DNA from: Phoronis australis
Taxonomy: Eukaryota > Animalia > Phoronida
Direction of reading: 5' to 3'
Length of the DNA: 64,000 bases
NCBI GenBank assembly: GCA_002633005.1
Contig: NMRA01000249.1
Coordinates: forward strand, 62,001 to 126,000
Positions 445 to 25,149 of this stretch are shown in pieces. Position numbers and translations under genes: made by a program. The stretch's first letter is position 1, and each line of letters opens with the position of its first letter. Below the pieces are notes generated by a model. It saw only the letters and a list, made by a program, of their open reading frames with translations. It searched no databases and was not told the DNA's origin.

Positions 445-543
445 GTATTCCTCACATCCAGAGCTGTTTACGTGATTGTTTTCAACTTATGCCATGACTT
501 GGAAGACAGGGCCCACACTCAACTCTGGCAGTCCGATGACCAG
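445..543 (+). CDS. ROCO exon 1 (visible): ROC segment after switch II
   Basis: ctccAG|VFLTSRAVYVIVFNLCHDLEDRAHTQLWQSDDQ|GTaagt; phase 0-0; resembles the ROC 'FLtxrAvYxxVf' motif. Confidence 0.88.
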
Positions 544-3500
544 GTAAGTCATATTTCATGTCAATAAACAATGGAGGATGGTCATGCGTTGCTGTAGGAA
601 TTGGGCACTGACGAATTAGAGCATATCCCAGATGGTTTTCAGGTGTTAGATGGGGACTTATTTGTAAGGATAGGTTATTCATGACTGTATGTAATTTATT
701 CGTTATATAACGATATGCTTTCAGAAGCAAATTAATGTAGCATCACGGTTTTGTAGCTTATGTTTTTGTTTTGCAAATAAGCTTGAAACGGCACACCCGC
801 TAAGTGGCTGCCTAGGAAGTTATTTCTTTGGACAGTCAAGTTCAAATGTTGAATTACGGTAAGTTGTAAATGGCTCATGTTCAACTAGATAATAATATTC
901 CGTTGTATAGGCCATGTTCTGCTGCTGCATGGTCATGCAAGTGACTACAGGGTTTTCTTAGGGTTGTTTTAAGAGGGCTTTGTGTCCTCTTTTAGTTTGC
1001 ATTGTAGGTGTCTGATTGCAATCATCTGTCCTCTCCTCTGCCCTCTAAGTTTGTTGGGTTTGTTATTAATAGCTATTTGCTCAAGACATCCAGTCTAAAT
1101 ACTTGTCTGTCACAGTCAGCTGGGTAGTGTGATATGTGACTTTATGGTGACTCAAGACTTCATAAGTGGTTTCTTTTAAGTAGAGTCTCACCTGTATGGA
1201 GCACGTCATTACTTTGTGTGGAAAGGAAAGGTGTGGTTGTTCTTTCCATCTGACGAACCAATCAAAATGCAATCATGATATAAAACACAGAACTTCAATC
1301 ATCTGGTCTGAAGAAATCACTTGCATTAATGGCAATTGATTTCCGTAGAAGAACTGAATGTTCTAGTGAAGTCTGAAGCTGCAGTTGGTGTAATTATGTT
1401 GTATAAAGACTGGGTTGCCCTGTCAGTAGACAATTATGGTTTTTGGTTCTCCTTTCTTCTTATTGATTCTGGGAATGGTTCGTTTGTTATCATTTTATAG
1501 CATGATGTGTACAGGTTTCTAAAACAATCGTATTTTGTGTGGTTGGGTATCCTAGTTTAATGTGTGTCTGAGTTAGTGTGTATAACATTCATCTGTGGCA
1601 TAGGCATGGTTATGATTGGCTAATGTGAATGCACAATCTCAACCTGTGGTCTGGGGTCTGTTTCATGATAAGTGACTTAAGACTTAAAGTCAGAAATTTG
1701 GTCTTACACCACACAAAAATATTTCTGAAAAATAAAATTTGAATATCACTTTAAAGTCTCTGTCAGAAATAACTACTAGTCAGTGACTGTTTAATTTCGG
1801 TAAATTATTTCTAGAGAGTGACACTGTCGTAATTTCTTGGCTAAACCTGTTTTCAGCTATTGGGAAGTGGGAGTGGAAGACTGAACTTCAATGTGAAACA
1901 ATCCCATGATTTCATTATTGTATTTTGTTAAGAAATGTTACCTTTCACACCTAGTAAGTGATTATGCAATAGTAAGCTGTGTAGTTGGGTTGGACTGTGT
2001 GGACGTCTTTAGAGTACTAAATATAGAGCATGTCTTTTAAGATCAGTCTTGCAAGGCCAGACATAATGAAGCGTTGTTCTTTCTACTGTGGGAAGTGAGT
2101 AGACTTCTGTACAGTCGCCATAATCTGTGTGTGCTTTTCACATAAATTATTTACTGCAATTTAACTAGTCTAATGTGTAGTGCTCACGGTGCCTGCCGGA
2201 TGCAAAATATGAAAAACTGTCCTGCAATATTACACGTTGTCCAATATTAGTCTATTTAATGTTGTGATAATCAAGATTTGAAACAAGATCTTCTGGTCCT
2301 GACAATAAATTTCGAGCGCTATAAAATATCACCAATTTCGGAAAAAAATAATTGCAAAATTGTACTTTTTCATTTTTAAGGCTTCTAACATTATTGTGAA
2401 TGCTCAAAATGTTTTCTGTTGTTAGCTACAGTACAGAACTCGGATAAGTATTATTTTGGTACCACGTACATGATTAAAAGAATTGTACTGTTTGTGGAAC
2501 TCACAAATTAAGCTACATCAGATTTGCCTCATGGTTTTCTGTTATTTGTTGAAAGTGGTAAATAAGAGCAAAATGGCTGAGTTTATAACTTGTCCAAATT
2601 ATGCTTCGTGTAATTAAGTAACAAGCACGTTAACCGTTATGTCTTATGTCCGTTACCTGCCCCGCTCCATTACTTCTTCACTTCCCCTTTATTTATTCCC
2701 CTGCAGGGTTCACATATATATTGTCTGCTGTAAGTTGCCATTATCTCTATCCAAAGGTATTGGTCTACACAGTGACATGGCCTGGATCATGAGTCATTAT
2801 AGGTGGTGTTTCTCTTTGCATCCTGTTCATTCCTTTGTGCTTTTCAAATATACTCTTGTCTATAGTTTTCATTGACTATACTCACCTGACAATGGTGCTT
2901 GAAAACTAATTGTCATGAGCGTTTTTATTTTCATTTATTATGTATAACAAGGAAACAAAGCTGTGAAATAGTGAACACCAGTTGACCGGCTCATTATGTA
3001 TGTTTGTTAGAAGTACCCTTGTGCATGACGCTCCTGTACGTGTTTTCAAATATCTGTTTCTCATGCGCACACCCAGGGGGGCTCGGGGGCGGCTCAAACG
3101 AGCCCCTCCTTTTGACGAAGTGGACAAAAAGGTCCGCCTCAGGAAAACATAAAGTCCGAATAAACCAGACAAAAAGTCCTCTAAATAGGCACAAATGCAC
3201 AATTCCGAGCTCTGGACGTGGTACCCCGTTTTTGTTTTTTTTAGTCCTTTGGCTTTTTTGTCGGCAAAAGGTCCACATCGTCGCAAATCCGAGCCCCCCT
3301 TATTAAAGGCTGGGTGCGTGTATGTTTCTAGCTTTGACTGCGCGCTCTTTCTGTTACTTTTTATGGAGGTGGGAATGCACTCACAGAAGACAAGCACGTG
3401 TAAGTTGGATTTTCAATTAGCTCAGACAACATTCCATGCGCCTGCTTCTGCAGATAAGTCGGATTTCACCTGAGTCCATCTTCTACAAGTGTTTATATTT

Positions 3501-6500
3501 TGTTGTTACAGGGCGACTCGTCCACTGAAGAGGAGTTAACTAACCTGGACTACATGGATTATTGGATGAGTTCTATACACGCGCACACGGCACAGAACAC
3601 GCGCAACAGTGTGGACAACACCACACTATCGCCACCAATATTCATCGTGGGAACTCACCGCAATAGTCTGGCATCGGATCCTGACATACTCGAACAAATG
3701 GTAACTTCTCATTGTTTAAAAATTAAAAAAATTCCTGGGCTTTGCACTAGGTATGTTTTTGTTCAGGAGGGTTCTCCTGAAATGTCCCAAAGTTTTGCTA
3801 ACAAATTATTTTCTACTTAAGATAATGACTCAACACTTTCCTTAAACCTGCATAATTCCATTGCAAAATAACGCTGTAGCACGTGCTGCAAAAAGATTGT
3901 TCAGTGCTGCTTATCCAGGTTTTTTGAAATTTGTCAATTTCAAGCTTGATAGAGCACGGCGTCTTTTTCATTTTGGAAACTAAGGCGCATTGAGTTTTGC
4001 CGTTAGGGAACATTTCCAACACTTACTGTAAATTTAAAGTGAATTTCCAGTTGTCTCAACTTAACTACCTTTTCAGCTCAACTAGTCCATTTTAACAGAC
4101 ATCGTTTCTCGCATACTCCTGCTTTTTTGGACTGAATGCAACGAGTGTTGGGGAAAAGCGCTGTGTCGCAACCGAAAACGCTAGCATTAAAAAATGTACA
4201 ACACTAGTATTTGCCCAATTGATACATAAAATTGACAGTCTGCAAAATTTGAAGTTCCTGCCTCTATTGAAAAAAAAATTGGTCAGAGTTTGGATCCTGT
4301 TTCAGGAGAACCATGTTGTATCATTTTTTAAATCTTTGAAGTTACGTGTATTCCTCTGAAGATTCTTTCTTAAAACCTCATGTTCCAGTGCCTCTTTCTA
4401 CCCGTATTTCATGGAGACAATGTTTATTGAATATGGGGACATGGCTATGCATCTAACTCTTTATTTGTAAACTGTGTAGTAAGGTTTAAGGGTACAGTAA
4501 CAATTTTCCTTGTCATTTTTCATTAAATTACCATTTTCTGGTAATTCTAGATAAATTTCAAGTAGATTAAATTCCCTCAAATTCTATTTAACTATGCATG
4601 TGTAACACCAGAAGTGTGTTCAAGAGCGGAATCATTCCCCGCCAGCTTTGTTTCCATGCATTACAAACTGTGTTGTGACATGGACTGCATCAGTGTGTAT
4701 TTCAGCTTGTAACAAGTTTGACCGTTACTCGCCTTTCTCTGAGACCAGTATTCAGTATGCCTAGAAGCTGTTGCATACCCGGATGCAAGCTTCATAAGCG
4801 CCCGAAGAGGAGTATGTTTCACCAATGTCCAATGGTTGACTGGTGGAGTTGGCTTGTTTGTGTCAAGAATGCAGTGTTGCCCATTCATGCCACCAGTAAA
4901 CCAGTCAACTGTGCAGTAAATATATCTTACCATTGGGTTACGAAAAAGGACATGTATGTACACGGTCACGACGGTTAACTGCTAAACATGATCTGAAGAA
5001 AGATGCCATGTCATTGGTATTTACGTTGTTCTCTTCTCCGTCACCACCTGCTGAGAATGCTTTTTTGACACTGGATGCATGGCGAGCTGCAGCGACATTT
5101 TAGTGACTCGAAGCAACAAAGTCTGCGTCACACTAGCATGTGAACAATTACTGCTGCGTATAAGGCTAGCATCCAGTGCATAATGTACATGAGTCACGTG
5201 TTCGTGGTCACCGACCATCAGCCGTTTCCTGTCCTGTGGCTAAATTCCAGCACGGTGGAATGTGACGCTTTAATAAAAGATAAACCAAATTCTTCACTGA
5301 AATCCTTTTGGTAGGTGAATGTGTTCCTGTTGTTTCAGGTTGAAGAGAAGTTTGATCAAATCCGTAGCCATCTGGTGGGAAAGTCATATCAACGACATGT
5401 AGTGAATACATTTTATGCAGTAGAAAATAGTCTAGTCGACTCTGAGGATGAACAAGTAGGTCTTTGAATCTGCAATGGGGTGTCAGTATTTTAGTCCACA
5501 TGAATTTGCTACTGAGGATAATGTGTGACAAATATTGCATTGAGAAAATGTCTTTAGTGAAATAATAATTAGGATGTATTTAATATAATTACATTATGAA
5601 CTCAAAGTGGAACTTGTCCGCTAATTCGTTACCTCTGTGATTCTGTGGTCAAATTAGTTAGAAACGCAACATATAGCGACAATGTGGATGTGAAGTACGT
5701 TGAAAATTGCCAAATGTTTTGTGTCAAAGATGATTCACTGTGTCCAGTAAGCATCGTGACGTGGTGTTCGGGATTATGTGAGCCCCCCAAGGTATGTCAT
5801 TAGTGCAAAGGTCACCTATTTGCAGATTTTTTTTTGTTTTCACATTAAAGAGTTGTCAATGAATACAACTGCACTTTGTTTAGCGCAGGCAGTGTTCAAA
5901 TATTGTCATTTACTTCCTGCCATACATTATAAGCATGCAAATACTTGAGTTATACAAATGCTTTAATGGAGGATTTGTCCGATTTTTATGAGGAACTGGT
6001 CCATGCGTATTTTCAATGTGAACAGTGTGATGACGTGCAAAACCTCTTGGAAATTTCGTCAAAATCTCAAAGCTTGTTGAGGGATTTTGATGAAATTTCC
6101 AAGAGGTTTTGCACATGTCGTCATTCTGAGACGAGTGTAGGATTTGTTTCCTCACACGAACCATAAAAATGATCTTTTTGCTGAAAAACTCAATGTGTCT
6201 AAAACTTTCAACCACTTGTGTAAAAACACGATTGTGCAATGTAATAAGTAATTACTTTTTGTTGAGTAGTTTTATTTTAAACTTAACAATTGTAAATTGC
6301 ATTAGCTTTTGTAACCAAGGCTCAAGTTATAATCTAATAAATAGTCTTTGAAGTTGTAATTTCAAAGCTTAACATATGTTTATAAATAACAGTCAGTAGG
6401 GCTTTCCCCTGTGTGAAAACTGAATTGACCTTGAGACAGCACAGCTTGACAGTCTCACCATGTTTCTTGAGTTGGGGTTTGTCTCCGTTTGAATGATCAT

Positions 6501-9500
6501 GGATATGGAATTTACTGCCAAAGATGGTTCCATTTAAGATTTAAGAAGTTGTTTGCATGTCCTTCTGACTGGGAGTGCGTACAGTTCTGACACTGTTGTC
6601 TGTCATAACCATGTCACCTTCACGGAATTCCGTCGTTGTTTGGTTGGCGCGCCTTTGATTTAGTGTTTTGCAGATGATAAAATGTAAGGCGTATGTATTT
6701 CTTCTTAGCACTACTTTGTGATTCGCCCATGTCATATCAGAAAAAATACGTACTCGGTGTTATTAACCAGCCGTGTCGTAACACATTCTAGGTCATGTGA
6801 GGAAAGCTATACTAATTTCTGAGCAATGAAATTAACAGACATGAACTGGAATGAATTCAGGTTCTGTTGATGTGTTAAATAGCTCATTGTTTACTGGATT
6901 TAGCTTTACTCTGGCAATTTACCTATCGCAAACTCTGCCCCCTCGTGGTTGTAGACAATCAAACAATAAGTTTTACCAGACAATGTGTTGTTTGTCGCGT
7001 AAAATGGAAGTGAAGGTGTGTTCAGAATGATGCGTTCAGATTGGTCAGTTAAACCGTCTCTCAAATTTCTGGCGATAGGTCAATTACTGAAACATGGCTT
7101 ATTGAATCTGAGTTTGTTGTGTATATAAGACGAGTTGAACAAGTAAACTTGAACAGAAACCTGGACAGTTCGTAAGCTTTTTCGCAATTTTAACTTTGAG
7201 ATGATTTTAATATCCGTGTGTTGGGGAAAATGTTTGGAGAAATTTGGAGTGATTAGTGATCACACTATTCTGATGTAAACAGTAGATTACATACAGTGCT
7301 TATGATGTAAAATGCTCCAGGTCAAGGTCAGGTGTGCAGCAGCATATGAATCTTATTTATTATTAAAGGGTGATTGACTGGACTTTGACCTCTGGATTTA
7401 CACTTGTAGCTTAAATGTTTATGACAAGATTGCTATTCATGCATTATTGTCATGGATCAGATATAGTTATTATTGGCATTCTGTGCATGGGCACAGCTCT
7501 GCTTGTTGAGCTTGTCAGTCATTGATTGTCATCACAATCTGCTGTCATATAGAGTCTGTGGCTTGTAAGATCAATAAGTAACTATAATTGTTAATTCATA
7601 GCCAACGACCGACCGGATAGTACATTGCACATAAATAAATGAGCATTGTCCTCACAAGTGTTTGTACACAACTTCTCACTTGACAATGTTTAATTGTGAA
7701 CATTTCTAAGTTGTTGAGAAAAGACTATGCGCATCTGCCATGAATGTCAAAATAGAGAATAATATGAGCAGTGTTTCAGCCAGGGAATAAACATTTGCCT
7801 AAAATCATCCCAGAACAAACACTGACTCAAGAGAAAAACGTGAAACTCGTTCAATGTCTCTAAGACATTAAAAGCAGCTATAAACCCCATTCCATCAAAG
7901 AACTTAATCGTGTCTGTTCATTGCAGGTGGTGAAGCTGAGGCGGCACATTGAGGACGTAGCCAGTAAGCAGCCATACATAGGTGAACAGATGCCTATTAA
8001 GTGGCTCAAGTTTGAACAGGCAGTCGCAAAGCTGGTCGACTCGGGTGTCAATTTCGTCTCCACTGACCAGGTAAAGTCTGCTTGATGCCACTTTTTTGTT
8101 TACTTTTTATTAAAATTCTCACTTAAGATTTCTTCCAAATATACCTAAACTAGCCATTGCAGTGAAAGGCTGTTTACTGATTTAAGTTGGTAGACTTTCA
8201 CCACATTGAATTATGGTTGCGTTGTTTTTGAGAGTCATGTTGCTAAAATATCTTGGCATTAACAGTAACGGATTTATTATTTTAAGTTGTTTTTGAAGCT
8301 GCAGTTATTTAAGAGGAATGCCAGAGAGCTGAATTACTATCTCATGCCGACTAACAAATGCTGGTGTACGCTCACACTGCTAGTGTTCTAAGTGCTTATT
8401 TGATACGGGTGTTATTGAGCCCAACACTGACTGCTGCCAACATACAAAGTTTCATTGTTAGGTGTTAGTTCTGCACATCGTTACTCCGTTTAGATGTTTA
8501 AGCATAGTGTGTCGTGTTATGTCAGTAGGATAAAAATCTCTCGCAGATCCGTGAAGTGGCCAGTGAGGAAGGTATTTGTAAAGAGGAAGAGCTTTGTACA
8601 ATGTTAGAATTCTACCACGACCTGGGCGTTGTGATTTGGTACGGCAACTCGGGCACGCTAGATAGTGTTCTACAGAATACAGTCATACTGCAGCCCAAGT
8701 GGCTGGTGGATATGTTTAAAACTGTCATCACAGTCAAGGATTTGGACCAACAGGTAAGGTAGTGTTGGTAGGTCTTCTAATACACTGTCTTTGGGATATT
8801 CCTTCTTAGAAGCTGCGACCATCATTCACGTGGTATGAAATTCACTGGCGGCATGTGTTGTATTTGCTCAATCATTGAGTTGAGTTTAGAGTGATTGTTT
8901 TTTGTATTAGATAGACTTGCAAGGTATGTTGTTAAGATTTTGACAAAATAAGTGGATCATCACCTATCGAGACTATGTCCAGACTTAGCTCAAATGGAAA
9001 CATTATCTAGTAAAAAGTGAATCTTTTGTAGGGCTTTTGTGCATCAGCACCATCAAATTTTAATGTTGTCTTGTACATTTTGAAAGCTGCTGCATTGGTT
9101 CTGTGTTAGCTTACTAGGTAAAGAAGCAGAAAGGTGAATAAATACCAATTACTACGAAATTGTAAAGTTTGAGTGCTTTATTGAAAATGTTGGCGCTTTT
9201 GATATACAGACATTTTGTATTAACTTTTAGTTTGCACTGCTATTTGTCTCGAGAGAAAAACCTGTATTGTGAATTGTTACTGAGTGAGATAAATGCTTTG
9301 GTATTTAGAGACAGTACCATTGAGAATCGGTTCTTGAACTTGATATCCTATCTTTTCCAGTGGGCTGCTTACATGGATTCCTGGAACAGGTTAGACAAAG
9401 AGGCGATCCTGGAGGAGCGACTAGTTGACCACCTGTGGAGAGACATTCCCAATGAGAGGCCTGCTCTGCTGGGACTCATGGAAAAGTTTGACCTGATCTG

Positions 9501-12500
9501 TATTCGTCTTCCACCTACGCATGTGAGTGGGAAGTGTACCTTACTGCCAACAGCTCAAGTCTGCGGCGTCCATATAGTGACCAAATATTGACCACCAAGG
9601 ATCTGTTTACCTTTGCAAGAACATATTGAAAAAATATAGACTTTTGACGCTAAATGGGTATCAGTAGAGTTTCCTTTCCACGGTATATTAGAATCAAAAA
9701 CAATTCATGGCACTCGGGGTCTAACACTAATTTATTCTGATTAATTCTGAAAAAAGTTGGTATTTGCAAGCTCTCGCTTCCTGAAAACAAAACTAATGAT
9801 TCCTATTGATGTAGACATGAGTGAAATTAGTGGGTATGTTACTTCTGCTGATGGGCTCTATATTGGAAATTGTTCTATAATCTTACTAAGTGAAAGTTGC
9901 ATTTTTGCAACCTCTTGGGTCAGTTTTGTCATTTTGTGTTCACTGACAGACAAAACATTCTCGAAGTTTTAACGATGCATTTCTCCCTGTTTAGGGAAAG
10001 ACGGTTGCAAGCCACTTGAGCTCATAAAATTGATTTCATCATAAACCTCGTCATGATAGAATTTGATTTCTCTTACCAGCCACGACATTGGAACCATCGG
10101 CAACTCAAGAAAACGATTCAGAGTCTATTAGGGTTGGCCAACCCTAAAATTGCAAATTCAAAAATTGTTAATGTACACATTTGCCTTTGACTTAAGTTGT
10201 AAAGGGAAATAGAATCCTATCATGGTAAGGAATACGAGACTGTTTTATGAGTGGGGAGTTAAATGTCTAATTGGTACTTAAGCTAGCTAAACAGGATGAA
10301 ATTCTGCTTGTAGTCGTCATTGACGGTCACTGATAGTCACTGGCAGATATGGCCTATGGCCTATAACATCTTAATGTTATTTATGATTAGCGTTAACATA
10401 TTATTAATCTTTTTACTCATCTCGCTGGCCGTCCATCGTGGTTACAACATGGTGGTAGTATTTGCTACATCCATATGGTGTTATTTTTCCAGTTAAAAGA
10501 CACAGCGGACTATGCACAGAACAGTTATTATGTGCCAGCCAGGCTCAAGGCACAGCCGCCCAGTGAGAGTAGATATACCAGCAGACCCAATGATGTTGTG
10601 TTCTATTTATGTTTTAATGGATTCCTGCCCGGTGGGTGATCGTCTTTTGCTAATAGAATTGAAAGTTTAATTGCGTGTACATAGGCCTCCTGTTGACAGT
10701 TAACCATGTGCTATGTTGAATGTAGTTGCTTCTGCGGTTGCATTTTGGTATTAAGGAGTGTTAAGAAGGGTGGATGCCAAGGCTGTTTGAAATATACCAC
10801 AGCATACCTGTAGTGTTGGCTTCATTGGTGACATTGCCATTGTTTTACCGTGAGCTGTGCGTTTAGGAAAGAAACCTGTCAATTTGGGAGCTCTAAATTA
10901 AACTGCAAGTTGTCTAAAGTGTCATTGTCATACATGTCAGTCTAGACGAAACGGATTCTTTTAAAAAACGAATATTTAGAGCTATAATCAATTCCCGTGT
11001 TTTTAGCATAGCATTTACAAATGTACTGTACACCACGTTGCAATCCAGTTAAGCGATCTTATGGATTTTTGTCTTTAAATATGGATGTTTACAGAGATGA
11101 TGCAGGTGGGGACCTAAGGGACTTGACGTGTGTGCATTGTGTCTCAGAATTCCTCATGTTTAGTACAGATAAAGCATTCTGAACTGAAAAGCTCATATTG
11201 CTTTATTGACTTCAGGAATTTCACAATAATGCCAATTTTCTAAAATCTTGTGAATGGGAAGAAGCGTTTACCTTATTTGACGGTACAAAACAATCAAGTG
11301 GTATTTTTCATGCGCTATGGCTGACAATTTTGGATTCTGCAGCATCCGTAACTGGCTGAAACTAATTGGTAACGTTTCAGACATTTGAGTTGCATCACTT
11401 TTTGCACTGATATGGCATCATACCGTGCATCGTCAGTTCCTGTGCACTCGATTTCAAGGGTTTATTTTTGCAATGGATGCGGTCTCTGTGTATTCTGATT
11501 GAAGATGAGATCCACGAACCAGTCGAAGTTCATCAAAGCTATTGGACGAGATCAAAGTCACAAGACTGATACTTATTCTGACATCATTCAGTTGTTTCGT
11601 CCATAGTATGGTGACCATCTGAATACTTACATGTGTACTTGTTACAGAGGGTCTGTTCCACCGTCTTCTTGTCCGTGGTGTTCGCTGGTCTCAGGAGAAT
11701 GGCAGTACTGAGCCTCAGTTGTATTACAGACATGCCAGATTCTTCTTGGACAACGAACATGACTTCATGCTTGACATGGCCCCCATAAAGGATGCCAGGA
11801 TAAAGGTAAATGGTGTTGTGCATTGTGCTGGAGTCGTGGGTGAGAATGTGGATGAGGGAATGTTTGGCGCTTGCCCCTAGTCATAATATTATGTTTGGGT
11901 TTGGAATTTGACCTGTTCAGACGCTGTTATTGCTCGAAACCAGGCTCAAGATGTTCCACACGAACCAGTGATTCCTTTAATGCAGCGTCTATGTCCTCTA
12001 GCAACAGTCAGTTCATCTGAAGCTCACAAGTCTCTGATTACGTACTAAGTACACTATGTAGCAACACTGGCATTGCATCGTCACACTTCACTTAGCCATT
12101 GTTGAACAGTGCTGACCTCATGCATTATTAATCAATCTCATCCAGTGGATGAATTTAGAAGTTTTACGCAACCCAGTCCTGGTCACTATAATACATGTGT
12201 TGAATAAATGTTTATTTTTCTTTAGGTCACCATTCTTCGTGTAGCTGTACTGGGTGATGCTAACGATGATACACACAGTGTGTCGTCGATGGATAGGCTT
12301 GCGCAAACACCGCCAAACCCTTCCGCATGTGCCAAGGTAATAGCCAGTTGATGTGACAGAAAAAGACTCTGCCAACCTATTTTCACACAACTATGGCATG
12401 TTCCTCTAAGCGACAGGTCTACTATTTTGGCTGCTCTATTTTGGCAGGCACCTTTCTTTATGCTAAATGGTTAGAAAAGTCATGTCGAAATTTTCATGAT

Positions 12501-15500
12501 GGTGTTTCTATGTAGGCCAAAACCTGACAGATTTTGATTTTTGGACATTTTTACTAACTACTACTCCTCCCAGTGACTTGTGTGTTTGCTTCAATCAGTT
12601 TCTACCAAAGATCGATGAAGGATATTCGTGAAATTTGACAGATTAGGTTTTATCTATGAGAAAGAAACACTTGCTCATTTTTAAACTAGGTCGTGCCCCT
12701 TCTGGGAATTTTATCAGATAAGATTTTGCTCTCTGCCAGGCAATTTGAAGAAAACTGTTTGCAAATGAATGTGTGCTAAATTCAAGGTGGTAGTGACTGG
12801 CTTTGAATATTGGATGGATCCGGCGGCTGCAATGCCCTCTTGTGGGGATTTCAGTATCTCTTAGTGGCAAGTTTGCATCCTTTTTGTAAATCTTAATATT
12901 GCATTAAGTTTGCCAATTTCTGGATGACTGGCACAGTGACTGCAGCCAGTAGATCAATTTTAAGTTCACTGGTGTTACCCTTGTTCATGGGATGTTAAAA
13001 CAAACAATAGCACGCTTACTATATTTGCCATTTGTGGTGGAGGTGGTGGGCATGAATCAGTGATTTTAATTAGGAAGTAGTAGTACAAAGATGAGTCTCA
13101 ATAATGACTTATTTAATACACAGTGCAGATTCACTGTTTGAGAAACATGGCTTATGCTTGAAATTTTAAAAGAACGATTTAATGCCCGTTTCAATGGATT
13201 CCTTATCTGGCGTAAAGATTAGTTGAGCATGAATTTGCAATAAATATCTGCATCAGTGTGATCCACTGAAAGTGATCTTAAACGGTCTTGGTCTGGTATT
13301 TGCTTTCAATTGGCTCACTCCCCAAACATAGGGCATTTGCATGACAAATGAAAGTAGTGCCAAATACCATTACCTTTAATGGACTTGGCTAACCTCTCCA
13401 GAATTGGGCTTTTCAAAGTCAACCGCAGGTGACTCTTCAGTTCAACTAATTGCTACCATGGCATCTAGGGAACCTGTTACAAAGCTGGAAGAGATAATTT
13501 TGTGATTTTGATGGCCAGGTGCTTAGGTCATCAAGCAAAATGAACCATTTCTAACACTTTCCATTTTAAAAAGGGAATTTCCACTCATTCCCTTTTTGTG
13601 CCTGAAAAGTTGCAGATTTTTTCTGCGCCTGGATTTCCATCATTTTGGCTTAAAAATTGATATATTCCATTGCTTTTCAGAAAATTCTGCGTAGAATTCC
13701 ACCGCAGAAATTTCTGCGCAGTAAAATCCCTGCGCTGGAATTTTGCGCAAAAAAGTGTGCGCTGGAATTCTGCGCAGAAATTTCTGCGCATTAAAATTCC
13801 TGCGCTGGAATTTTGTGCAAAAAAGTGTGCGCTGGAATTCTGCGCAGAAATTTCTGCACTAGAATTCTGCGCAGAAATTTCTGTGTCGCAATTTTGCTGC
13901 GCAGAAATTTCTGCGCTGGAATTCTATGCAGAAATTTCTGCACTGGACTTTTGCTGCACAGAAATTTCTGCGCTGAACTTTTGCTGCGCAGGAATTTCTG
14001 AGCAACAGAATTTCAGTGCAGAGATTTCTGCGCAGCAGAATTCCAGCGCAGAAATTTCTGCACATGATACAACAGAGGGCTGAAATGCAATGGAATATAT
14101 CAATTTTTAAGCCAAAATGATGGAAATCCAGGCGCAGAAAAAATCTGCAACTTTTCAGGCACAAAAAGGGAATGAGTGGAAATTCCCTTTTTAAAATGGA
14201 AAGTGTTTTCTCTTACTGAAACATTGATTCAGTGTCACACAGTGATCTATCGATTTTTGATTTTCGGTTTCTAGTGTTTTTATTACAGCCTTTTTCCCTT
14301 ACTGTGGGAAAATATACTAGTAAGTTATATTAACTGTCAGGAATTTGTGTTGAACTGATGATTTGTTTGAATTGTGTTCATTTTCTCTATGTTTTGGAAG
14401 TTGGATAAAAGCAGAAGGCACTCTAAATTGTTAGATTTCAGTTTACTTGTTACGACTTCAAGATTGGATCAAATTGTTATACAGCCAAAGCAATTCATGT
14501 CACTATTTTGCTATTTTAAAAACAAGAACACAGATGTGTTGATCTAAAGCTGCTGCGTCGATATATGAATTATAAAATGCTTCTTTAAATGCCGTCATAG
14601 TCTTCAACCTTTTGCCGAATTACTGTAACTTTGGATAAGTAAGGTGCCCTTCATTTCAGGTGAGAAATTTTCTGGACTCTGTGCTTTCTGACCTGCGTAC
14701 CATGTGGGTACATAGAATCTCTTACCAAGCTAAAGTAGAGTGCTGTTGTGAGAAGAGTTTAACGCACGGCCTTCACTTCCTGGATCTCGATGAGTGCCTG
14801 TCCAGTAAGGTAAGACAGTTGGACTGGAATCTGTGGTCAGTGAAGGGACAGTGCGGTGTCAATATGCCCCTCAACTTGTGAGCAAGTTTGAAAAGACGTC
14901 TTGGCTCAATAAAGGCAGTGAAAGTGCGCTGACGTGGGATGTTGAAGCCCCCATGCTGTGCCACCTTTAAAAATCATCGTTTGGGTCTGTGTTTTGTAGT
15001 GGTTTGTTCATTTTTATACAGCCAGTTAGCGTTTCTAATTATACGTCACTCCGTCTTTGTAAAACCGTGGACACGGAATGATGTTTGTTCATTGTTTCAA
15101 CTTGAGGATTCATTGCCGCTAACTAAAGTTAGTTGGTATGGAATAATAGCTCAGCGTTCGGAGTGCCCGGTCGGTATTTGGAGATCGTTAGATTTCTGTG
15201 TCTGGTCAGGCGAGTTTCTTTCATAGCAGATAACGCCAATGTATTTAGGATTTACACAAACTTGCTAAAGTGAGAACTTACTTCCTAACTACTGTTATGT
15301 TGCCTGTGCTTGTTCAGCTTCATTGCATTTAATTGCCTGGAAAACCTTCATTGGCACACACAAGTGGATTACATCTTTATCTTACTTTCAGGTGGTTCTT
15401 TGCGATCACAGACGAATAAAGACAACCACTTACTGCAGTTGGTTCCCAGCTCCTGTTGTTAAAAGTAAGTAACCTATTTCACGAAATTAATGTTTTAAAA

Positions 15501-18500
15501 TGTCTGAAACTGCAGTTTCTAAAATGTGAAATATGCGCGTGTGTGATTATTTGGGGTCTCCCTTAATTGTTACTGGCCCATTTTTCTGCTTCCATAATCC
15601 ATCACGTTTACTTAGAACATTCCATCTCAATATCGCTAACCTACATCCCTTCTTCATCCTCCTCTATGAGCCAGTCCACGAGAGGTCCCTCTTCTCTGAC
15701 TCTGCGCACCTGAAAATCACCACCTCAGTGTAATAACTGAGATTCACTTTTCATCATCGCTGTCAATGTCACTCTGTATTTCAGCCAATGAGGGTCCTAT
15801 CTTCTCTGACACACTAATCGAGCAGCTGGACTTAGAACACTCTGTCAACATCGAGAGATCTGCTACAGACATGCCAGTCTGGACTAAGAGTGCTGCCAAG
15901 TTACTGAATGGTGGCTCAGATGGACAAGACTGGACAGCTCTGGCCAAGAGGCTTGGTAAGAAATTATAGTAGATAGCCAAGGTGTGGTTATTTAGTTTTG
16001 CCCTTGGTCAACCTCAGGTGTAAAGTGTATTTGCGGTTAAAAGTTGTGCCTTGTTTTTGTTTTTAAAGAGTTCCTGATAACAAGCATGTTGTTAGTGTTT
16101 TTATTGAAAAGACTCACTGAAACACAAACTCAAACTCTTTTGCCGTCCTGTTTACAGGTTATAAGAAGAATAAAATTGAGAAGCTGGGTGAGGACCTGAA
16201 CCCTGCGCTGGCACTGATCGCTGATTGGATCATACTGAGTGGTAACACGCCTCTCTCTGTGGACATGATAGTCTCGTACCTGGAGCAGATGCACAGGGAC
16301 GATATTATTGAGATTATTCAGAAGGGACAAGGTATGGAGACATGGAGTATGGATCGAAGAAGTGTCTCATGAATATTGGGTTAGAGATTAGGGACCCATT
16401 GTGTCAAAGGTTGTAACTTCCGAATGTTGCAGATTCACATTGAGGGTCACAAATGTAGTGTGCTGTTTTCTACAAAAACAAAGCATTGTAGCCTGGTTTT
16501 GGATTGTAGATGACTGATGTCGAATCCCCCTTCCCATAATTTAATTAATAAAGCAGTGTCTTGTAAAACGAATACTCATCATTCTTAGCTTCTGAGCATT
16601 CCACGTTTGATAAGAAGTGCACTTGAACTTGTTAAATCCTCTAGGGGTCGCTTGTCGTTAGTCAATTGATGCCGTGTAGTTTCACTGGCCATGAATTTTA
16701 AGATTCATTAAATGTGGCAGTGCACCCGGAAGAAGGTTAAATCTTATGAACACAATAAATTCATAATGATATAGTCTGGAGCTAATAAGAATTTTACAAG
16801 GCAGCCACGCAGCCTTTTTGGTAACAAAGTGGTGACTGGTATTGACACTTAATGTGGATGGTGTTACTAGTTAATGGCAAGCATTAGAACTTTACACTGA
16901 CAGACTACGGTATATTTCCTCTGAAATTCAGCAGTCTCAGTCATTGAAGCAATAACACCACCCTTCACTAGGCACACTTGACTGTCAATTACAATCACAT
17001 CACCTTGAGATAACAGTCCCCTCTTGATATCTAGGCCTGTGGTTTAATCTTTATACCTGAAATCAATCTCAAACTTACTTTATGCATTTATCATAGATCT
17101 GATTCTACTTTAATGCAGAATCCAGATAAGTATCTATCATTCCGTACTGTGGTGCCTTATGGTTTATGCTGGTTAGTTTGTAGTCCGAGTTTGCATTTGG
17201 TGACCCCAGCATTAAAGCCATGTGTTCGAGTGTGACCTCAAAATCCCAAGTTTTTACTCAAGTTTGTAGCTCAAGCGAACTTGCAATAAAAATTCACCTG
17301 CATAAACCAGAATGTGCTAGAACCCATAATTAGACACTTATATGGAGTCTGCTCAAAAGATGAATGGGAATGTCAAAAACAATTGGTAACAAGTTTGATT
17401 TTGATTAAAAATATTAGATCTCAGTCTCTGATGTTTTATCAGTTTCCAAGTTTTGTCCTTTCTGTAACTGCTCGAGGTCAATGAACGGTGATACACGACT
17501 TGGAGTCAGCTTATCCTAAGTTTCAAGTCTGACATTTTAAGTTACATTGTTCACTGTGATGTGCAAATGCAATATCGTAATGGTCACCGTAACAGCCTTT
17601 GGCCTCAGAAAGACTAGCCATCGCTCAGAGATGGGGACACACTGTTTGCATCACTGCAGTTCATCCCCTGTTGTACTCATTGTTCCGTTTATGTCACTAC
17701 TGAAGTGGACACCCTTGTAATCCTTTACACAGAGTCGGAGGCTGAACCTCCCCAGGTGTTCATCAGCTACCAGTGGGATGCCCAAGATAAAGTGCGACAG
17801 ACACGGGACAGGTTGGAGAGAGCTGGCTACACCTGCTGGATGGACATTGGTCAGATGGGTGGTGGTGACCAGCTGTATTCCAAGATTGACGAGGGTATTA
17901 GGAAAGCCAAGGTAACTAGTGATTAGGATGCCAACTCTGTGTTACATACCTGGCTGTTGGGGAGATGTCTTAACTTACATCAGGTTTAATATTTAGCACC
18001 TACTCTATTTGGTCTTGGCGTCAAACACCACAAGTAGGGAGAAAAATGTGGTACACGTAAGATTTGTGGCAAAAGTAATGTCAGTGACATTACGAACATA
18101 CCAGCTCACTGACCACCATCTCGCGTAATGGAGCACAGAACTGGGCATGTGATCAATCTTGTTGACTGGCATTGTGGTCCATTAATGGAACACCAGTTTC
18201 GTTATAATTTGGGGTTCAATTGCATCAATCATTTTAGGCAAATTGTATGTTTACGATCACAATAATATCTCAAAATGTAGTTTTCTAGCTGTGAGGTGAG
18301 AACACGATTGTCGCATAACAGTGACAGTGTATTGGACCAGTTGTTGTACATGGTTGTTGATTACGTCTCTTTGAAAGTTAGGGAATTATTTAATGGTCAG
18401 AATAAATTGATGTCATGCCTCAGGAAGCAACTCTCACTTGACTAATCATTTACCCACACTAGCTTCTAAATTCTGATTATTAATTGTCACCCAGTTCCAT

Positions 18501-19662
18501 ATAACAATGTTTCCACTATCGCCAACAGGTGGTGCTGGCATGTATAACACCCAAGTACATCGTCTCCCATCACTGTCACAGAGAGCTAAGCCTTGCCGAT
18601 CTCCTCCGTAAACCCATAATTCCTATTATGTACAAGAAAGTTCCCTGGCCTCCTCCAGGTGGCATGGCACTCACGTTGTCACAGCTGGTCTATATCAACA
18701 TGAAGGGTAAGGAATAATTCTTGAAATTTTGTCTGGTTGTGAAAGTACTCAATCATACAGCTTTGAATTATTTCTGAATTTTTGAATGCATGTTTATGAA
18801 GGTCTCGAAAATCAAGGAAAAAACAATCTTACTGTTTGCCATCCTAGCAGTAATTTTGATAACTGTAGGATGTACATTTTCCTAAATTTCCAAATGCAGT
18901 ACTGGGCATGTTGATGGAAACTTGCACAAATTTAGTTGTAAAAAACGTATGACCTTTTGAACAATAATTATATTATACTTTGTATTGAATTTGGTATCTT
19001 ACAATATGAAGCAATTAAGATTACAATGAATATGCTAGGTCTTGGAAAAAATGATCTAATCAGTGAAATTCTTATGTGTAAATCGTAGAATTAGTAATAA
19101 TGTTTGCTATGAAATTTTGTCAACAAGGCTTTACTCCCTGTACTATGGAATCCTCTGATTTCATTTTCTGTTCTTATAAGGATCAAGAAAAAATTCCTTT
19201 TTACGTAAAATTTAGTATCTTTGGTATACGATCTCAGAGATGCAGATTGAAGTATGTCATGTTAATTCTTGTCTAGGGGTTGGAGGTCATGGTGGGTCAG
19301 GAATCCACGCCGACCTCGCAGAACGATACAACGAAATCCTCCAACGTGTGTCGAGGTATGCCACACCGAGCCAGTCAGTGAAAGCAGAGAGTAATCCGTC
19401 CTTGAAAATCTCTGAGAAATTCCACACGGGGTCCGATAGTACGCTAGACGACACATCGTCCAACTATGACACGACACCGGAGCCACCCGTATTCCAAGAG
19501 TTGTTATCCCTTCAGCATGCCTTGCCAGCCAGTCTTCGTACAGCAGAGAACGTGAACGTGAACCGAGCCATTAGACCCCAGCCTCCAGCCGAAGTGACTC
19601 GTAGCGTGACCCGCGTGGAGCAAGTTCACGTGACCAAGTGTGCGGTCTGCACTATACTATAG
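445..19662 (+). CDS. ROCO-family protein, ROC-COR-Death-TIR-CaaX (5'-partial; 16 exons; 878 aa visible)
   Basis: Exons 445-543, 3512-3700, 5339-5455, 7927-8070, 8547-8753, 9361-9522, 10493-10631, 11648-11805, 12226-12336, 14660-14809, 15392-15464, 15785-15955, 16158-16331, 17733-17911, 18529-18706, 19277-19662. All have AG/GT boundaries with compatible phases and sum to 2637 nt (879 codons including TAG). Motifs: ROC (FLTSRAVYVIVFNL, PIFIVGTH), COR (PIKWLKFE, FYHDLGVV, LQPKWL, YYVPARL, GFLPEGLFHRLL), Death, TIR (VFISYQW, WMD, CHRE). Confidence 0.9.
3062..3324. mobile_element. MITE, CATG...(C/T)ATG termini, 5-bp TSD
   Basis: TIR catgcgcacaccca / tgggtgcgtgtatg; TTTCT on both flanks; related inverted copy at 34745-34979. 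Confidence 0.75.
3512..3700 (+). CDS. ROCO exon 2: ROC with G4 motif
   Basis: ttacAG|GDSSTEEELTNLDYMDYWMSSIHAH...SPPIFIVGTHRNSLASDPDILEQM|GTaact; phase 0-0. Confidence 0.92.
4757..5022 (+). pseudogene. Decayed THAP zinc-finger fragment (transposon-derived) in a ROCO intron
   Basis: MPRSCCIPGC...FHQCP...W...; after frameshifts, LCSK and LKKDAM..VF resemble the THAP CSxHF and AVPTIF motifs. Confidence 0.6.
5339..5455 (+). CDS. ROCO exon 3: ROC G5 region
   Basis: tttcAG|VEEKFDQIRSHLVGKSYQRHVVNTFYAVENSLVDSEDEQ|GTaggt; phase 0-0. Confidence 0.85.
7927..8070 (+). CDS. ROCO exon 4: ROC-COR junction
   Basis: ttgcAG|VVKLRRHIEDVASKQPYIGEQMPIKWLKFEQAVAKLVDSGVNFVSTDQ|GTaaag. Confidence 0.92.
8547..8753 (+). 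CDS. ROCO exon 5: COR-A
   Basis: cgcAG|IREVASEEGI...MLEFYHDLGVVIWYG...VILQPKWLVDMFKTVITVKDLDQQ|GTaagg. Confidence 0.93.
9361..9522 (+). CDS. ROCO exon 6: COR
   Basis: ttccAG|WAAYMDSWNRLDKEAILEERLVDHLW...LLGLMEKFDLICIRLPPTH|GTgagt. Confidence 0.92.
10493..10631 (+). CDS. ROCO exon 7: COR (YYVPARL...FNGFLP)
   Basis: ttccAG|LKDTADYAQNSYYVPARLKAQ...VFYLCFNGFLP+g|GTgggt; phase 0-1. Confidence 0.9.
11648..11805 (+). CDS. ROCO exon 8: COR-B
   Basis: ttacAG|(E)GLFHRLLVRGVRWSQENGSTEPQLYYRHARFFLDNEHDFMLDMAPIKDARIK|GTaaat; phase 1-0. Confidence 0.92.
12226..12336 (+). CDS. ROCO exon 9: COR-B
   Basis: ctttAG|VTILRVAVLGDANDDTHSVSSMDRLAQTPPNPSACAK|GTaata; phase 0-0. Confidence 0.85.
13553..14207. mobile_element. 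Foldback-type non-autonomous element with 128-bp TIRs and an internal tandem array
   Basis: 13553-13680 is the reverse complement of 14080-14207 with one mismatch; the interior is about 27-bp units such as gcgctggaattctgcgcagaaatttct. Confidence 0.9.
14660..14809 (+). CDS. ROCO exon 10: end of COR, Cys/His cluster
   Basis: tttcAG|VRNFLDSVLSDLRTMWVHRISYQAKVECCCEKSLTHGLHFLDLDECLSSK|GTaaga. Confidence 0.88.
15392..15464 (+). CDS. ROCO exon 11: end of Cys/His cluster
   Basis: tttcAG|VVLCDHRRIKTTTYCSWFPAPVVK+a|GTaagt; phase 0-1. Confidence 0.85.
15785..15955 (+). CDS. ROCO exon 12: linker and start of Death domain
   Basis: tttcAG|(T)NEGPIFSDTLIEQ...SAAKLLNGGSDGQDWTALAKRL+g|GTaaga; 'DWxxLAxxLG' Death-domain signature; phase 1-1. 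Confidence 0.9.
16158..16331 (+). CDS. ROCO exon 13: Death domain core
   Basis: ttacAG|(G)YKKNKIEKLGEDLNPALALIADWIILSGNTPLSVDMIVSYLEQMHRDDIIEIIQKGQ+g|GTatgg; phase 1-1. Confidence 0.9.
17733..17911 (+). CDS. ROCO exon 14: TIR N-terminal half
   Basis: acacAG|(E)SEAEPPQVFISYQWDAQDKVRQTRDRLERAGYTCWMDIGQMGGGDQLYSKIDEGIRKAK|GTaact; TIR_2-type FISY/WMD motifs. Confidence 0.94.
18529..18706 (+). CDS. ROCO exon 15: TIR C-terminal half with catalytic-position Glu
   Basis: aacAG|VVLACITPKYIVSHHCHRELSLADLLRKPIIPIMYKKVPWPPPGGMALTLSQLVYINMK+g|GTaagg. Confidence 0.94.
19277..19662 (+). CDS. ROCO exon 16 (last coding): TIR helix E, low-complexity tail, CaaX box
   Basis: gtctAG|(G)VGGHGGSGIHADLAERYNEILQRV...VEQVHVTKCAVCTIL*; TAG at 19660-19662. 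Confidence 0.88.
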
Positions 19663-19973
19663 AAGAGGGCTTACAGGGACGCATTTTGTGTTTTAGGCGT
19701 TTAGCCAACCTTTCGTTTTGCTAGTCGTTGAAAGACATATACCTGGTACCTGTGGACTTGTCCATACTTTTTAGTTCCATAAAAATAGGGACTAGGTGGA
19801 ACATGTATTCCCCCTCTCACTCACATTGTAATGCCTTCTTCATCAACGTATACGGGAGTGGTTTGAAATTTATGTGTGGACTTTCACACCATGCATTATG
19901 TGCCTCTGTATTATTGTCCATGCAACAAGTGAAAGGCTTATAATGTACAGATTACAAATACTGTAATGCCCTG

Positions 19974-20208
19974 GCGCCTGTTCCAACAAAACTGACTTAG
20001 CTAAGACAAATCTTAAATTTTAGTAAATTTAAAATAAAAGTTAAATTTGTCTCAAAGCAAATTGAAGAAAAAGATCTTAAGTTTGATTTAAGTGTGTGTC
20101 TTAATTTTGACTAACTTACCGAATGTGGAAGTTTCAAAGCTTGGAAGTTAAGACAAATCTTAAACTTAAGTCAAAAATGACCTTAAGTCAGTTCCTTGGA
20201 ACAGGTCC
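19974..20208. mobile_element. PIF/Harbinger-like MITE in the probable ROCO 3' UTR
   Basis: TIR gcgcctgttccaa / ttggaacaggtcc; CTG on both flanks; second copy at 24906-25149. Confidence 0.8.
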
Positions 20209-21143
20209 CTGATGTCTTGAGGATGGTGGGGGGGGGGGGTCAGTGACTTGTGGTGAGCTCATTTGAGGTCCCCTTTACTGTCCCTTGTAACCCTCCAGAC
20301 GGTGGTTGCATCAGTGATGGACATCTGACAAAATATTGATCATGCGTTGTACTGTAGAGCTTTTAAAAGTTTTTGGAAATGTGAAGAGGAGTACAACTCG
20401 ACTAAAGTCTCAGCACCTTTTTGTACATTTACAAGGTGTTCCCATTGTGAATTGCACCGCACCTGCTAAACTTGGTGCCTATTTTTGAGATACCCTGTAT
20501 TTTGTATGCAGTCAGGAAGTTCGAAATTGAACCATGTCCCGTTACATAGATAAAAATTAGAGTATTAATGTAACTTGAAGGATGCGAAGTGTCTTTTTTA
20601 CGTTAATTGTGAAATTGATTAATCTGCTATTTTGATTTGAAATCACCTGAAATGTGAGCTGGCTTGTATTTGGAGAAGCCGGTCTCGCCATATGGATTGC
20701 ATGAGTTTTGAGTCCAGATGTTTGTTGTCTAGTTGGTAATTTGCAAGGCAATTCTAAACATTAATTGAGAACATTTTTGTTAGTGAAAAGTGGTACATAA
20801 TGGTTCCACGAATTTCTTGAACTTTCTGCAAAGTTTCGCTCGCTTTGTTCAAGAATTTGCGGCCTCTGCTTTTGCAAAAATCAAGTTTATGTATTAAGAA
20901 TGTTTTGGGATTTTTAGTCATTGCAGCAGAAGGTATTTCTGATTTTACCTTTATAATATTTTGAAAAATGTACCTGCTGTGTGGCTGTCTGGGTTGATTG
21001 TCAGTTTGTATTATCATCTGACAAATTATTTGGACTTTATGGTTATTATCCTGGTATTGTTAGATTTGAGGAAAATTTACTACAATGCCTTACTTTTTGT
21101 CATTGTTTTGAACAAGACATGACACCTGAAAATGAGGTGATGA

Positions 21144-21223
21144 AATAAATATTTTAAAAATAGTCATATCTCTGTTTGAATTTAGTAGAGCCACATATAA
21201 CTGTGATTGTTATAAACAATAAA
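21144..21223 (+). terminator. Candidate poly(A) signals of the ROCO gene
   Basis: AATAAA at 21144-21149 and 21218-21223 after about 1.5 kb of AT-rich, UTR-like sequence; inference only. Confidence 0.3.
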
Positions 21224-23595: not shown

Positions 23596-24905
23596 TTTGA
23601 AATACATGCTTCTTAACGAGCAATAACACTTACTGCTTAGGATTTCATTGGAACAACAACCGAATACGAGTGTGAAGGGAATACTGAAACATTAAGCATT
23701 AAACGGCCAGTAATCGTTCATTAAATCGAGTATAACAATGAGGCCATTTGGTAAGCTCCAGGTGTGTGCATTTACATCATGTTTCAACGAAATACAAATA
23801 TCGGAAGTAAACTGCTACAGAAAGGCTGTTTTAAACCCATGTCAGAATTTATTGCTTCATAGAAGTGTGGAATATTAAAAGTTCATGCATACGTTCTAAA
23901 AACAAACAGCTCTATCTCTAGTGAATGGTAGTGTACTCTTGTGACCATAAAGTCAAAGACAAAATTACAATCAAAACAGTACCTGTCGCAACTGAACTGC
24001 CCCTACTAACCAATGTTTTGCTATACAGTAGTATACACTCGTAGTGTCTGTACGCCGGTAAAATGCATTTCCATTTCTGCATGACTGACCCCTGACGATC
24101 GCCAGCTCGCGGTCTTTGACGAACGTGGTGTCCTCAATGGCAAAGTTGACGCGCTTTCTATTGCCCACATTCCTCGTCGATGCTTCCTTGGTCCGTTTTT
24201 CGCCAAAGATTGAGCCACTCTAACCACGTTCACGACAAACACACATAGTCACATACCCTCACCATAATTAAACTACAAAACACCCAAGCATTCACCTTTC
24301 AGCCGAGAGCAGGCCGTTCTGGAAATAATTCTCAATTCCATGACTGTGCCTCTAAATTCAAGCCACACGCAGGGAGGATGAAATGGGTTTCCGTGCGCGG
24401 AATATAGCTGTTTGGTAAGTTTTGAGTTAAAAGATGCTTTTATTGCTCAAATCTCTATAAATTGAGGGAAAACAGCGAAAATATTATAAAAGCAACAATC
24501 AGTTCAAACGTCATTTTTGATATGCTTAACGTTGCCACAGACATTATGCTTGATAAACGATATTTAAGACAGAACATGTGTTTTAATAATTTACGTTGGT
24601 TGACATAGCAGCGTAGCATGCAGCATGCAACGTTCGAAAAATACTCTGGTCTGGTACGCCGGGGCCAGTGGATTTGCGGCCGGTCTAGCAACCTTTAAAG
24701 GTTTACTTGGCTCCTGGGCCAGTGAATTTTCAAACTAACTGACCCGGTGAGTCAGCGTAATTATTTGCTGAAGTTTTAACACTGGTAGCATGTCATTCAG
24801 AGGAACCAGGGGTTACATGGCAGAAGTCCGAAGGTGCAGTGGCTCAGTTGGAGGCTCACATGCGGCTTAGAGGTTTGAGCTCCGGACTCCCGTTTGGGAG
24901 ACCAG

Positions 24906-25149
24906 GGGCCCGTTCCAACAAAACTGACTTAGCTAAGACAAACATTAAATATTAGTAAATTTTAAAATAAAAGTTAAATTTGTGTCAAAACTAATTCAAG
25001 AAAGAGGACTTAAATTTGACTTGAGTGTTTGACATAAGTTTTATCTTAATTTTGACTAACTTACCGAATGTGGAAGTTTCAAAATTTAGAAGTTAAGACA
25101 AATCTTAAACTTAAGTCAAAAAAGAACTTAAGTTTCTTGGAACAGGTCC
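24906..25149. mobile_element. PIF/Harbinger-like MITE (second copy) inside a tRNA-derived sequence
   Basis: Collinear with 19974-20208; TIR gggcccgttccaa / ttggaacaggtcc; flanks cag/ccg. Confidence 0.8.

Follow-up and report, generated by a model that had tools for sequence, protein, structure and literature searches.

Can a ROCO GTPase that carries a TIR domain hold itself on a membrane by its own C terminus? The question is raised by a 64,000-nucleotide stretch of intron-rich eukaryotic DNA from Phoronis australis (GenBank assembly GCA_002633005.1, contig NMRA01000249.1, positions 62,001 to 126,000; this whole 64-kb stretch is the window, numbered from its first base), in which a plus-strand gene for a ROC-COR-Death-TIR protein, here called ROCO-TIR, ends in the residues KCAVCTIL. 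RNA reads show that the gene is spliced and expressed, and its C-terminal C-x-x-C-T-I-L forms a conserved signal. We predict, with good confidence, that the Cys of its CaaX box (C-T-I-L) is geranylgeranylated and the Cys three residues upstream palmitoylated, which would make ROCO-TIR a lipid-anchored membrane protein.

The C terminus of the expressed gene

Sixteen exons (445 to 19662, plus strand) join at AG/GT signals into a single open frame of 878 amino acids, and KCAVCTIL and the stop are encoded at 19636 to 19662, at the end of the sixteenth and last exon. With the orthologs as a guide, the 5' part of the gene, including the P-loop and a Neuralized domain, lies upstream of the window. 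RNA evidence comes from three raw-read runs of one study, 18 to 19% of each being read, and from a fourth run, a contig set whose RNA status is only guessed. These reads show six GT..AG joints connecting exons 10 to 16, among them 14809 to 15392, 15464 to 15785, and, into the last exon, 18706 to 19277 (5, 7, and 12 reads in the RNA runs); the nine joints upstream of exon 10 are drawn from AG/GT signals, the open frame, and the orthologs.

The original prediction took the frame to end in KCAVCTIL after a Ser/Thr/Pro-rich tail, and the reads bear this out. Over the motif and stop (19626 to 19681), read depth is 6 to 17 in the three raw-read runs; over 19150 to 19960, every read is sense-strand, 47 of 47 and 51 of 52 reads in two runs are at least 99% alike to the window, and sense reads cross the TAG stop. 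A transcript that splices out ahead of 19662 was looked for, and no splice joint lies within 19150 to 19960 in the RNA reads. The same interval has 38 listed substitutions, 13 of them within last-exon coding sequence and 25 past the stop, whereas all 10 indels fall past the stop, the first at 19667; no variant is listed between 19623 and 19667. All but one of the 13 coding allelic substitutions are synonymous (the other is Glu to Asp), against an expected synonymous share of roughly 25 to 30%, for a ratio of nonsynonymous to synonymous polymorphism (pN/pS) of about 0.03, a figure drawn from few alleles whose changes are not independent events. We conclude that the stop at 19660 to 19662 is genuine and that, within the species, purifying selection acts on the tail.

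Counted from 19357, the tail is 101 amino acids long, with a Ser, Thr, and Pro content of 32% (16% in the rest of the protein). Its end has the features of a geranylgeranyltransferase I (GGTase-I) substrate of the CaaL type, with Cys fourth from the true C terminus, a hydrophobic residue at a2, and Leu at X; an ending of the form C-x-[ILV]-L is expected by chance from composition in about 4e-4 of proteins. A single Lys or Arg stands among the last 15 residues, so there is no polybasic patch. In AlphaFold models, the equivalent region has a predicted local distance difference test (pLDDT) score below 50, indicating predicted disorder, at residues 1043 to 1126 of an oyster ortholog (P0011), and mostly below 50 at residues 259 to 373 of another ortholog (P0038), so that on predicted models a flexible, accessible stretch precedes the CaaX box. 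A tether of 70 to 100 residues would span about 6 to 7 nm end to end by random-coil scaling. The TIR domain, originally proposed to be held near the bilayer, is on these models carried by an unstructured tether several nanometers long and not docked on the membrane.

Conservation among orthologs

Queries made from exons 15 and 16 recovered 52 proteins, and a profile search added 144 (from its best 150 matches); of these 196 proteins, examined with cluster-member rows excluded, 48 contain COR, Death, and TIR domains. Full-length orthologs are Neuralized(NHR)-ROC-COR-Death-TIR proteins of 1240 to 1320 amino acids, the ROC-COR part matching Pfam PF08477 plus PF16095. Named sources include annelids, nemerteans, bivalves (oysters among them), gastropods, a chiton, a cephalopod, a hemichordate, crinoids, a starfish, amphioxus, a tick, spiders, a mite, and a centipede (Strigamia); conservation of the motif extends over no fewer than eight lineages of phylum level. 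No vertebrate, insect, nematode, or cnidarian occurs among the named matches and 30 looked-up proteins, which is not evidence of absence, and a profile search for longer forms (2280 to 5000 amino acids only) returned none at E 1e-60, which is weak evidence.

The terminal CaaX box, whose presence in orthologs was a test of the original prediction, is retained as C-x-[ILVM]-[LIVM] in 41 of the 48 COR-Death-TIR orthologs. All 41 also have a second Cys no more than four residues upstream, at -3 in 36 and at -2 in 5, the latter all oysters. Position a1 is varied (T in 14, A in 6, I in 5, N in 5, and others), a2 is I in 29, L in 7, V in 4, and M in 1, and X is L in 39 and V in 2, a distribution that, as sequence, is the pattern of GGTase-I substrates; 20 of the 41 end in CTIL, CVIL, or CIIL. 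Three or more Lys or Arg residues near the CaaX box occur in 3 of 61, in keeping with a dual anchor that does without a polybasic stretch. Mean identity with 31 full-length orthologs is 58 to 78% for the TIR domain, falls to 14 to 16% for the tail, and rises again to 63% over the final eight residues, and although the distance from a GGHG loop in the TIR domain to the motif varies from 82 to 298 amino acids, the motif keeps its terminal place. In a wider bin defined by the GGHG loop or ROC/COR (n = 76), the fourth residue from the end is Cys in 63; as a control, none of nine multi-TIR matches has a CaaX end.

Three proteins (P0007, P0171, and P0199) continue past the CaaX box with Trp and a short extension, likely a TGA codon read as Trp by prokaryotic gene callers. 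At the other terminus, the NHR domain (residues 1 to 152 of P0002) closely resembles NHR1 of Drosophila Neuralized (E 7e-41), a domain that binds the tails of Delta and Serrate; some annotated oyster isoforms lack it.

A sister family with a different putative second signal

The profile search also recovered ARM-like-Death-TIR-TIR proteins of about 1200 to 1570 amino acids from Haliotis, Patella, Nucella, Dreissena, Ptychodera, Adineta, and Aplysia, and two Atlas clusters of this type score 0.95 to 0.96. Among them is P0108, which corresponds to Aplysia LOC101850562 and has been called MyD88-like, with a fold of Armadillo type (PMC9334734). The fourth residue from the end is Cys in 61 of the 111 members of this bin (61 of the 87 with at least 30 residues after the last TIR), where the classes are rough and the bin takes in fragments, unrelated architectures, and some truncated orthologs, a looseness that counts against the lipid-anchor reading.

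Members of this sister family (P0099 to P0131, and P0108) end in K-S-x-x-C-a-a-L. Ser stands at -3 in 59 of the 61, and an upstream Cys is present in 6 of 61, versus 59 of 61 in the ROCO bin; the ten upstream residues hold on average 2.2 Lys or Arg, versus 1.2. Nominal p-values for this contrast overstate the difference, because each family is one lineage. The sister C terminus would combine a prenyl group with a Ser/basic stretch, possibly under phosphoregulation. By analogy, the two endings mirror the two classical second signals, palmitoylated Cys versus basic patch, which are established for H-Ras and K-Ras, and the swap would repeat that logic in an unrelated protein. The αC Glu considered below is kept in both TIRs of the sister family (35 of 42 and 42 of 42, respectively). 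A FastTree phylogeny of 203 TIRs separates ROCO-type TIRs from the two TIRs of the sister family; its backbone support is weak, and we therefore draw no order of events from it.

What kind of TIR protein

Pfam searches with single exons gave relevant matches (COR-A, Death, and TIR_2) in 5 of 14 exon pieces, and together with ortholog and fold comparisons, they confirm ROC (in part), COR-A, Death, and TIR_2 in the Phoronis gene; a PDB search with a single exon gave no match. ROC precedes COR, as in ROCO proteins, with fold matches to LRRK1/2 and C. tepidum Roco, and the orthologs retain the ROC motifs GxxxxGK[TS] (P-loop; 35 of 37) and WD[FL]xG (G3; 39 of 43). The Death domain is nearest those of p75NTR and NRADD.

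For the TIR domain, the best profile matches are Cat1 (E 6e-11), bacterial TIRs, and SARM1, and a fold search returned SARM1, TIR-1, and Hydra TRR-2 at Z scores of 15.8 to 15.9 (root mean square deviation of 2.6 to 2.8 over 124 to 131 aligned residues). An αC Glu is present in all 66 TIRs compared, in alignment with the Glu of the WxxxE motif in Cat1 and 4LZP; the Trp of that motif occurs in 1 of 66 and is replaced by His in the Phoronis protein. This Glu is no proof of nicotinamide adenine dinucleotide (NAD+)-hydrolyzing activity. From these sequence matches, an enzymatic, SARM1-like function of the ROCO-type TIR may be one reading. A family-specific GGHG loop with a near-invariant His follows TIR strand E (19282 to 19293) in 64 of the 66 TIRs.

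Alternatively, ROCO-TIR could be a MyD88/TIRAP-like sorting adaptor for Toll-like receptors (TLRs), as the "MyD88-like" annotation in Aplysia would have it. We regard this as unlikely. The order of Death and TIR is that of MyD88, whose TIR is tied with the best fold matches (Z 15.2), the best Atlas feature matches are MyD88 clusters (at 0.83 to 0.84, lead level only, with all Death-TIR matches below 0.9), and arthropod MyD88 carries a C-terminal phosphoinositide-binding domain (PMC7075850). However, neither Box 2 (RDxxPG) nor Box 3 (FW) of the MyD88, TLR, and TIRAP TIRs, as defined in PMC7075850, is found in any of the 66 TIRs; the αC Glu, which that paper gives for more than 70% of TIRs overall but for fewer than 10% of MyD88 and TIRAP, is invariant; by sequence, bacterial TIR enzymes and SARM1 match best; and the Death domain affinities noted above lie elsewhere. 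It had also been proposed that a self-anchoring protein might dispense with a TIRAP- or TRAM-type adaptor. The anchor half of that proposal stands as a prediction, but nothing places this TIR in a TLR pathway, and the comparison with TIRAP and TRAM is weak because the TIR lacks the MyD88/TLR/TIRAP Box 2 and because orthologs of MAL (TIRAP), TRIF, and TRAM were not found in Aplysia (PMC9334734).

Predicted lipid anchoring and its alternatives

Geranylgeranylation of OAS1 p46 requires the CTIL tetrapeptide, which also suffices for it (PMC8357416), and in a yeast reporter, human GGTase-I fully modifies CTIL, CVIL, CIIL, and CVLL (PMC11152559). Geranylgeranylation with palmitoylation is likely because the motif is conserved, because the sister family has exchanged the upstream Cys for Ser and basic residues, and because CTIL is a demonstrated GGTase-I substrate elsewhere. 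The prenylation part of the original prediction is thus well supported at the level of sequence, and the proposed second anchor gains from the constancy of the upstream Cys, its shifted position in oysters, and its replacement in the sister family.

Several points weigh against this interpretation. A strict CaaX box is missing from 7 of the 48 orthologs, in a tally of related sequences, not of independent events. P0016 is a second gene model of a Mya locus whose RefSeq model (P0018) keeps the CaaX box, P0093 and P0126 stop in or just past the TIR domain, P0160 (Seison) ends in CSIF, and for P0095 (Macrostomum, 1845 amino acids), P0097, and P0112, no cause was found. OAS1 with a shortened C terminus plus CTIL is cytosolic and nuclear (PMC8357416), so a CaaX box by itself is no guarantee of membrane residence. 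Palmitoylation is predicted from the position and conservation of a Cys and from nothing else, and lipidation does not account for the semiconserved V-E-Q-V-H-V stretch.

In one variant, which we consider improbable, the CaaX Cys is prenylated and the upstream Cys is not palmitoylated, serving instead for a second prenyl group, for redox chemistry, or, together with the V-E-Q-V-H-V strand, as a recognition site for either a prenyl chaperone or other domains of ROCO-TIR itself; the lipid may then be hidden until activation, as has been proposed for guanylate-binding proteins (GBPs). The ten residues before the cysteines are in part conserved, beyond the usual need of a palmitoylation site (Val at -6 in 33 of 41; Val or Ile at -1, just before the CaaX Cys, in 34 of 41), and the shortened OAS1 was not targeted by its CaaX box alone; the upstream Cys, however, moves by one place in oysters and gives way to Ser and basic residues in the sister family, as interchangeable second signals would. 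Still harder to credit is a role without lipid, in which C-x-x-C forms a metal or disulfide pair (e.g., a zinc clasp between ROCO protomers) or the C terminus is a PDZ-type ligand. The CxxC spacing of 36 of 41 orthologs would suit the former and the T-I-L end of the Phoronis protein fits the class I PDZ pattern, but five oysters have CxC instead, the sister family retains just the fourth-from-end Cys of the two, only 27 of 61 have Ser or Thr at PDZ position -2, residues a2 and X match the preference of GGTase-I, and any exposed CTIL would be an efficient substrate. Both the PDZ ligand and the zinc pair were rejected as the main role on the variable spacing, the few Ser/Thr at -2, and the GGTase-I-type a2 and X. 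The idea that the gene has a different end, or that the motif arose by chance, has a negligible probability: the GenBank Mya model P0016 does splice out just before the CaaX box, but the Phoronis reads contain no such splice and the motif is kept across the lineages listed above. An alternative last exon was rejected, as no joint appears in the reads over 19150 to 19960.

Under the dual-lipid interpretation, GGTase-I would prenylate the CaaX Cys, with removal of aaX and methylation at the endoplasmic reticulum as in other CaaL proteins, and a palmitoyltransferase would then reversibly acylate the upstream Cys and trap the protein on the Golgi, endosome, or plasma membrane, trapping by palmitate being proposed because the tail lacks a polybasic patch. 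The tether of approximately 70 to 100 residues would hold the Death-TIR module within several nanometers of the membrane, and nucleotide cycling and dimerization of ROC-COR would double the anchors and bring the TIRs together, with self-assembly of the Death-TIR module on the membrane as the most likely output. For the assembled TIR, we lean slightly toward a pure scaffold and give consumption of NAD+ somewhat less than an even chance. More speculative, and on balance doubtful, is the idea that prenylated Death-TIR proteins constitute an ancient bilaterian clade of membrane-anchored TIR enzymes, in which the ROC-COR GTP switch and a Neuralized-type domain would control the geranylgeranyl/palmitoyl branch and an ARM-like solenoid the tandem-TIR prenyl/polybasic branch, and which would have been overlooked since the usual model animals yielded no member. 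If this is true, SARM1 would be joined by a second family of NAD+-consuming animal TIRs, one that would include the first ROCO with its own lipid anchor.

Relation to known systems

The domain order places the Phoronis gene among the Neuralized-ROC-COR-Death-TIR proteins of invertebrates, described from Strigamia and Crassostrea alongside the actiniarian "Novel Gene 3" (PMC5094078), which in the sea anemone has a kinase and SH3 in place of Neuralized; Aplysia LOC101861518 is the ROCO-bearing "MyD88-like" protein (PMC9334734). The available text of these two accounts mentions no C-terminal CaaX box and gives no function for the architecture, and conserved invertebrate TIR families were already known under the name ecTIR-DC (PMC6321704). 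A literature search, with most subscription journals, supplements, and the original ecTIR-DC survey outside its scope, found no CaaX box on these proteins and no description of a prenylated ROCO. The architecture is therefore already published; the motif of the predicted lipid anchor is real and deeply conserved and has probably not been reported before.

Arthropod (Drosophila-type) MyD88, by analogy, is a nearer precedent than TIRAP or TRAM, as it likewise has Death and TIR followed by a C-terminal membrane localization module (PMC7075850). It binds phosphoinositides noncovalently, whereas covalent lipids are predicted in ROCO-TIR, which lacks the MyD88 TIR boxes and adds ROC-COR and Neuralized. 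The hypervariable regions of Ras, Rap, and Rho also pair CaaX with a second signal, as in Rap2B, which is geranylgeranylated and has palmitoylated anchor cysteines (PMC4159233); in ROCO-TIR, by contrast, COR, Death, and TIR separate the G domain from the anchor, which is about 700 residues away on a tether of approximately 100 amino acids. OAS1 p46 has the same geranylgeranylated CTIL end (PMC8357416) with no sequence relation, and its CaaX box is isoform specific, whereas that of ROCO-TIR, judged by its distribution, has been kept since the bilaterian ancestor. SARM1/TIR-1 and the bacterial TIR NADases (Cat1 and AbTir) share fold or profile matches and the αC Glu with ROCO-TIR, which lacks the WxxxE Trp and ARM-SAM.

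GBP1, GBP2, and GBP5, prenylated immune proteins like OAS1 p46, are large dimerizing GTPases with a CaaX box and are unrelated in sequence to ROCO-TIR. As for the human ROCOs (LRRK1/LRRK2, DAPK1, and MFHAS1), LRRK1 has the ROC-COR core in common (Foldseek E 1e-17) and DAPK1 also has ROC-COR-Death, but ROCO-TIR has no kinase and has a TIR domain; no human ROCO is known to have a CaaX box. LRRK2 structures have been solved with Rab29 and Rab12. A ROCO with its own lipid anchor would offer a simple model of how membrane confinement drives ROC-COR dimerization, a question open for LRRK2, and one answer to how TIRs are placed at membranes in animals without TIRAP and TRAM. Two widespread, uncharacterized invertebrate TIR families gain a testable cell location and an experimental handle in the two cysteines, a GGTase-I inhibitor, and statins.

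Features of the locus and its surroundings

Features of the ROCO-TIR gene in the window
Feature	Position	Strand	Evidence
Exons 1 to 3 in window (445-543, 3512-3700, 5339-5455)	445..5455	+	ROC C-terminal half with G4-like T-H-R-N; inferred joints
COR region, exons 4 to 11 (7927-8070, 8547-8753, 9361-9522, 10493-10631, 11648-11805, 12226-12336, 14660-14809, 15392-15464)	7927..15464	+	COR-A E 1.2e-11 on exon 5
Exons 12 (15785-15955) and 13 (16158-16331), Death domain	15785..16331	+	Death E 0.0015, below cutoff for a single exon
Exon 14, TIR first half	17733..17911	+	TIR_2 E 5.6e-12
Exon 15, TIR second half; conserved αC Glu codon 18583-18585	18529..18706	+	TIR_2 E 2.5e-6
Exon 16 (last): TIR end with GGHG loop, tether, CxxCaaL	19277..19662	+	Read joints
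Ser/Thr/Pro-rich disordered tether	19357..19614	+	Composition, 14 to 16% identity, pLDDT < 50 in oyster ortholog model
Semiconserved V-E-Q-V-H-V-T-K before cysteines	19615..19638	+	Val at -6 in 33/41, K/Q/R at -4 in 38/41, other positions 16 to 22/41
Second Cys, at -3 from the CaaX Cys; putative site of S-palmitoylation	19639..19641	+	36/41 at -3, 5/41 at -2
CaaX box C-T-I-L; predicted geranylgeranylation Cys 19648-19650	19648..19659	+	Fourth-from-end Cys in 41/48 COR+Death+TIR orthologs
TAG stop	19660..19662	+	Sense reads across; indels from 19667
3' untranslated region (UTR), ~1.5 kb; AATAAA at 21144 and 21218; repeat at 19970-20210	19663..21223	+	

The repeat in the 3' UTR resembles a miniature inverted-repeat transposable element, being short and of high copy number, and a second copy at 24902 to 25150 is 84% identical. 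Just beyond the end of the 3' UTR, antisense reads begin (21224 to 21524), suggesting a convergent transcript, and within the gene, an intron contains a degenerate palindromic tandem array with periods of 16 to 70 (13678 to 14061).

Elsewhere in the window, a gap of approximately 713 N at 26537 to 27950 is bordered by an inverted duplicate of 299 bases (99.7% identity) and is probably an assembly artifact. An exon with a THAP domain lies on the minus strand at 31011 to 31352 (E 5.7e-7). Minus-strand exons between 38422 and 63351 encode a farnesoic acid O-methyltransferase-type domain (38422 to 38754), WSC domains (39958 to 40341, 40481 to 40876, 49073 to 49480, and 61490 to 61870), and a SUEL lectin domain (63031 to 63351), and likely belong to one or more carbohydrate-binding multidomain genes.

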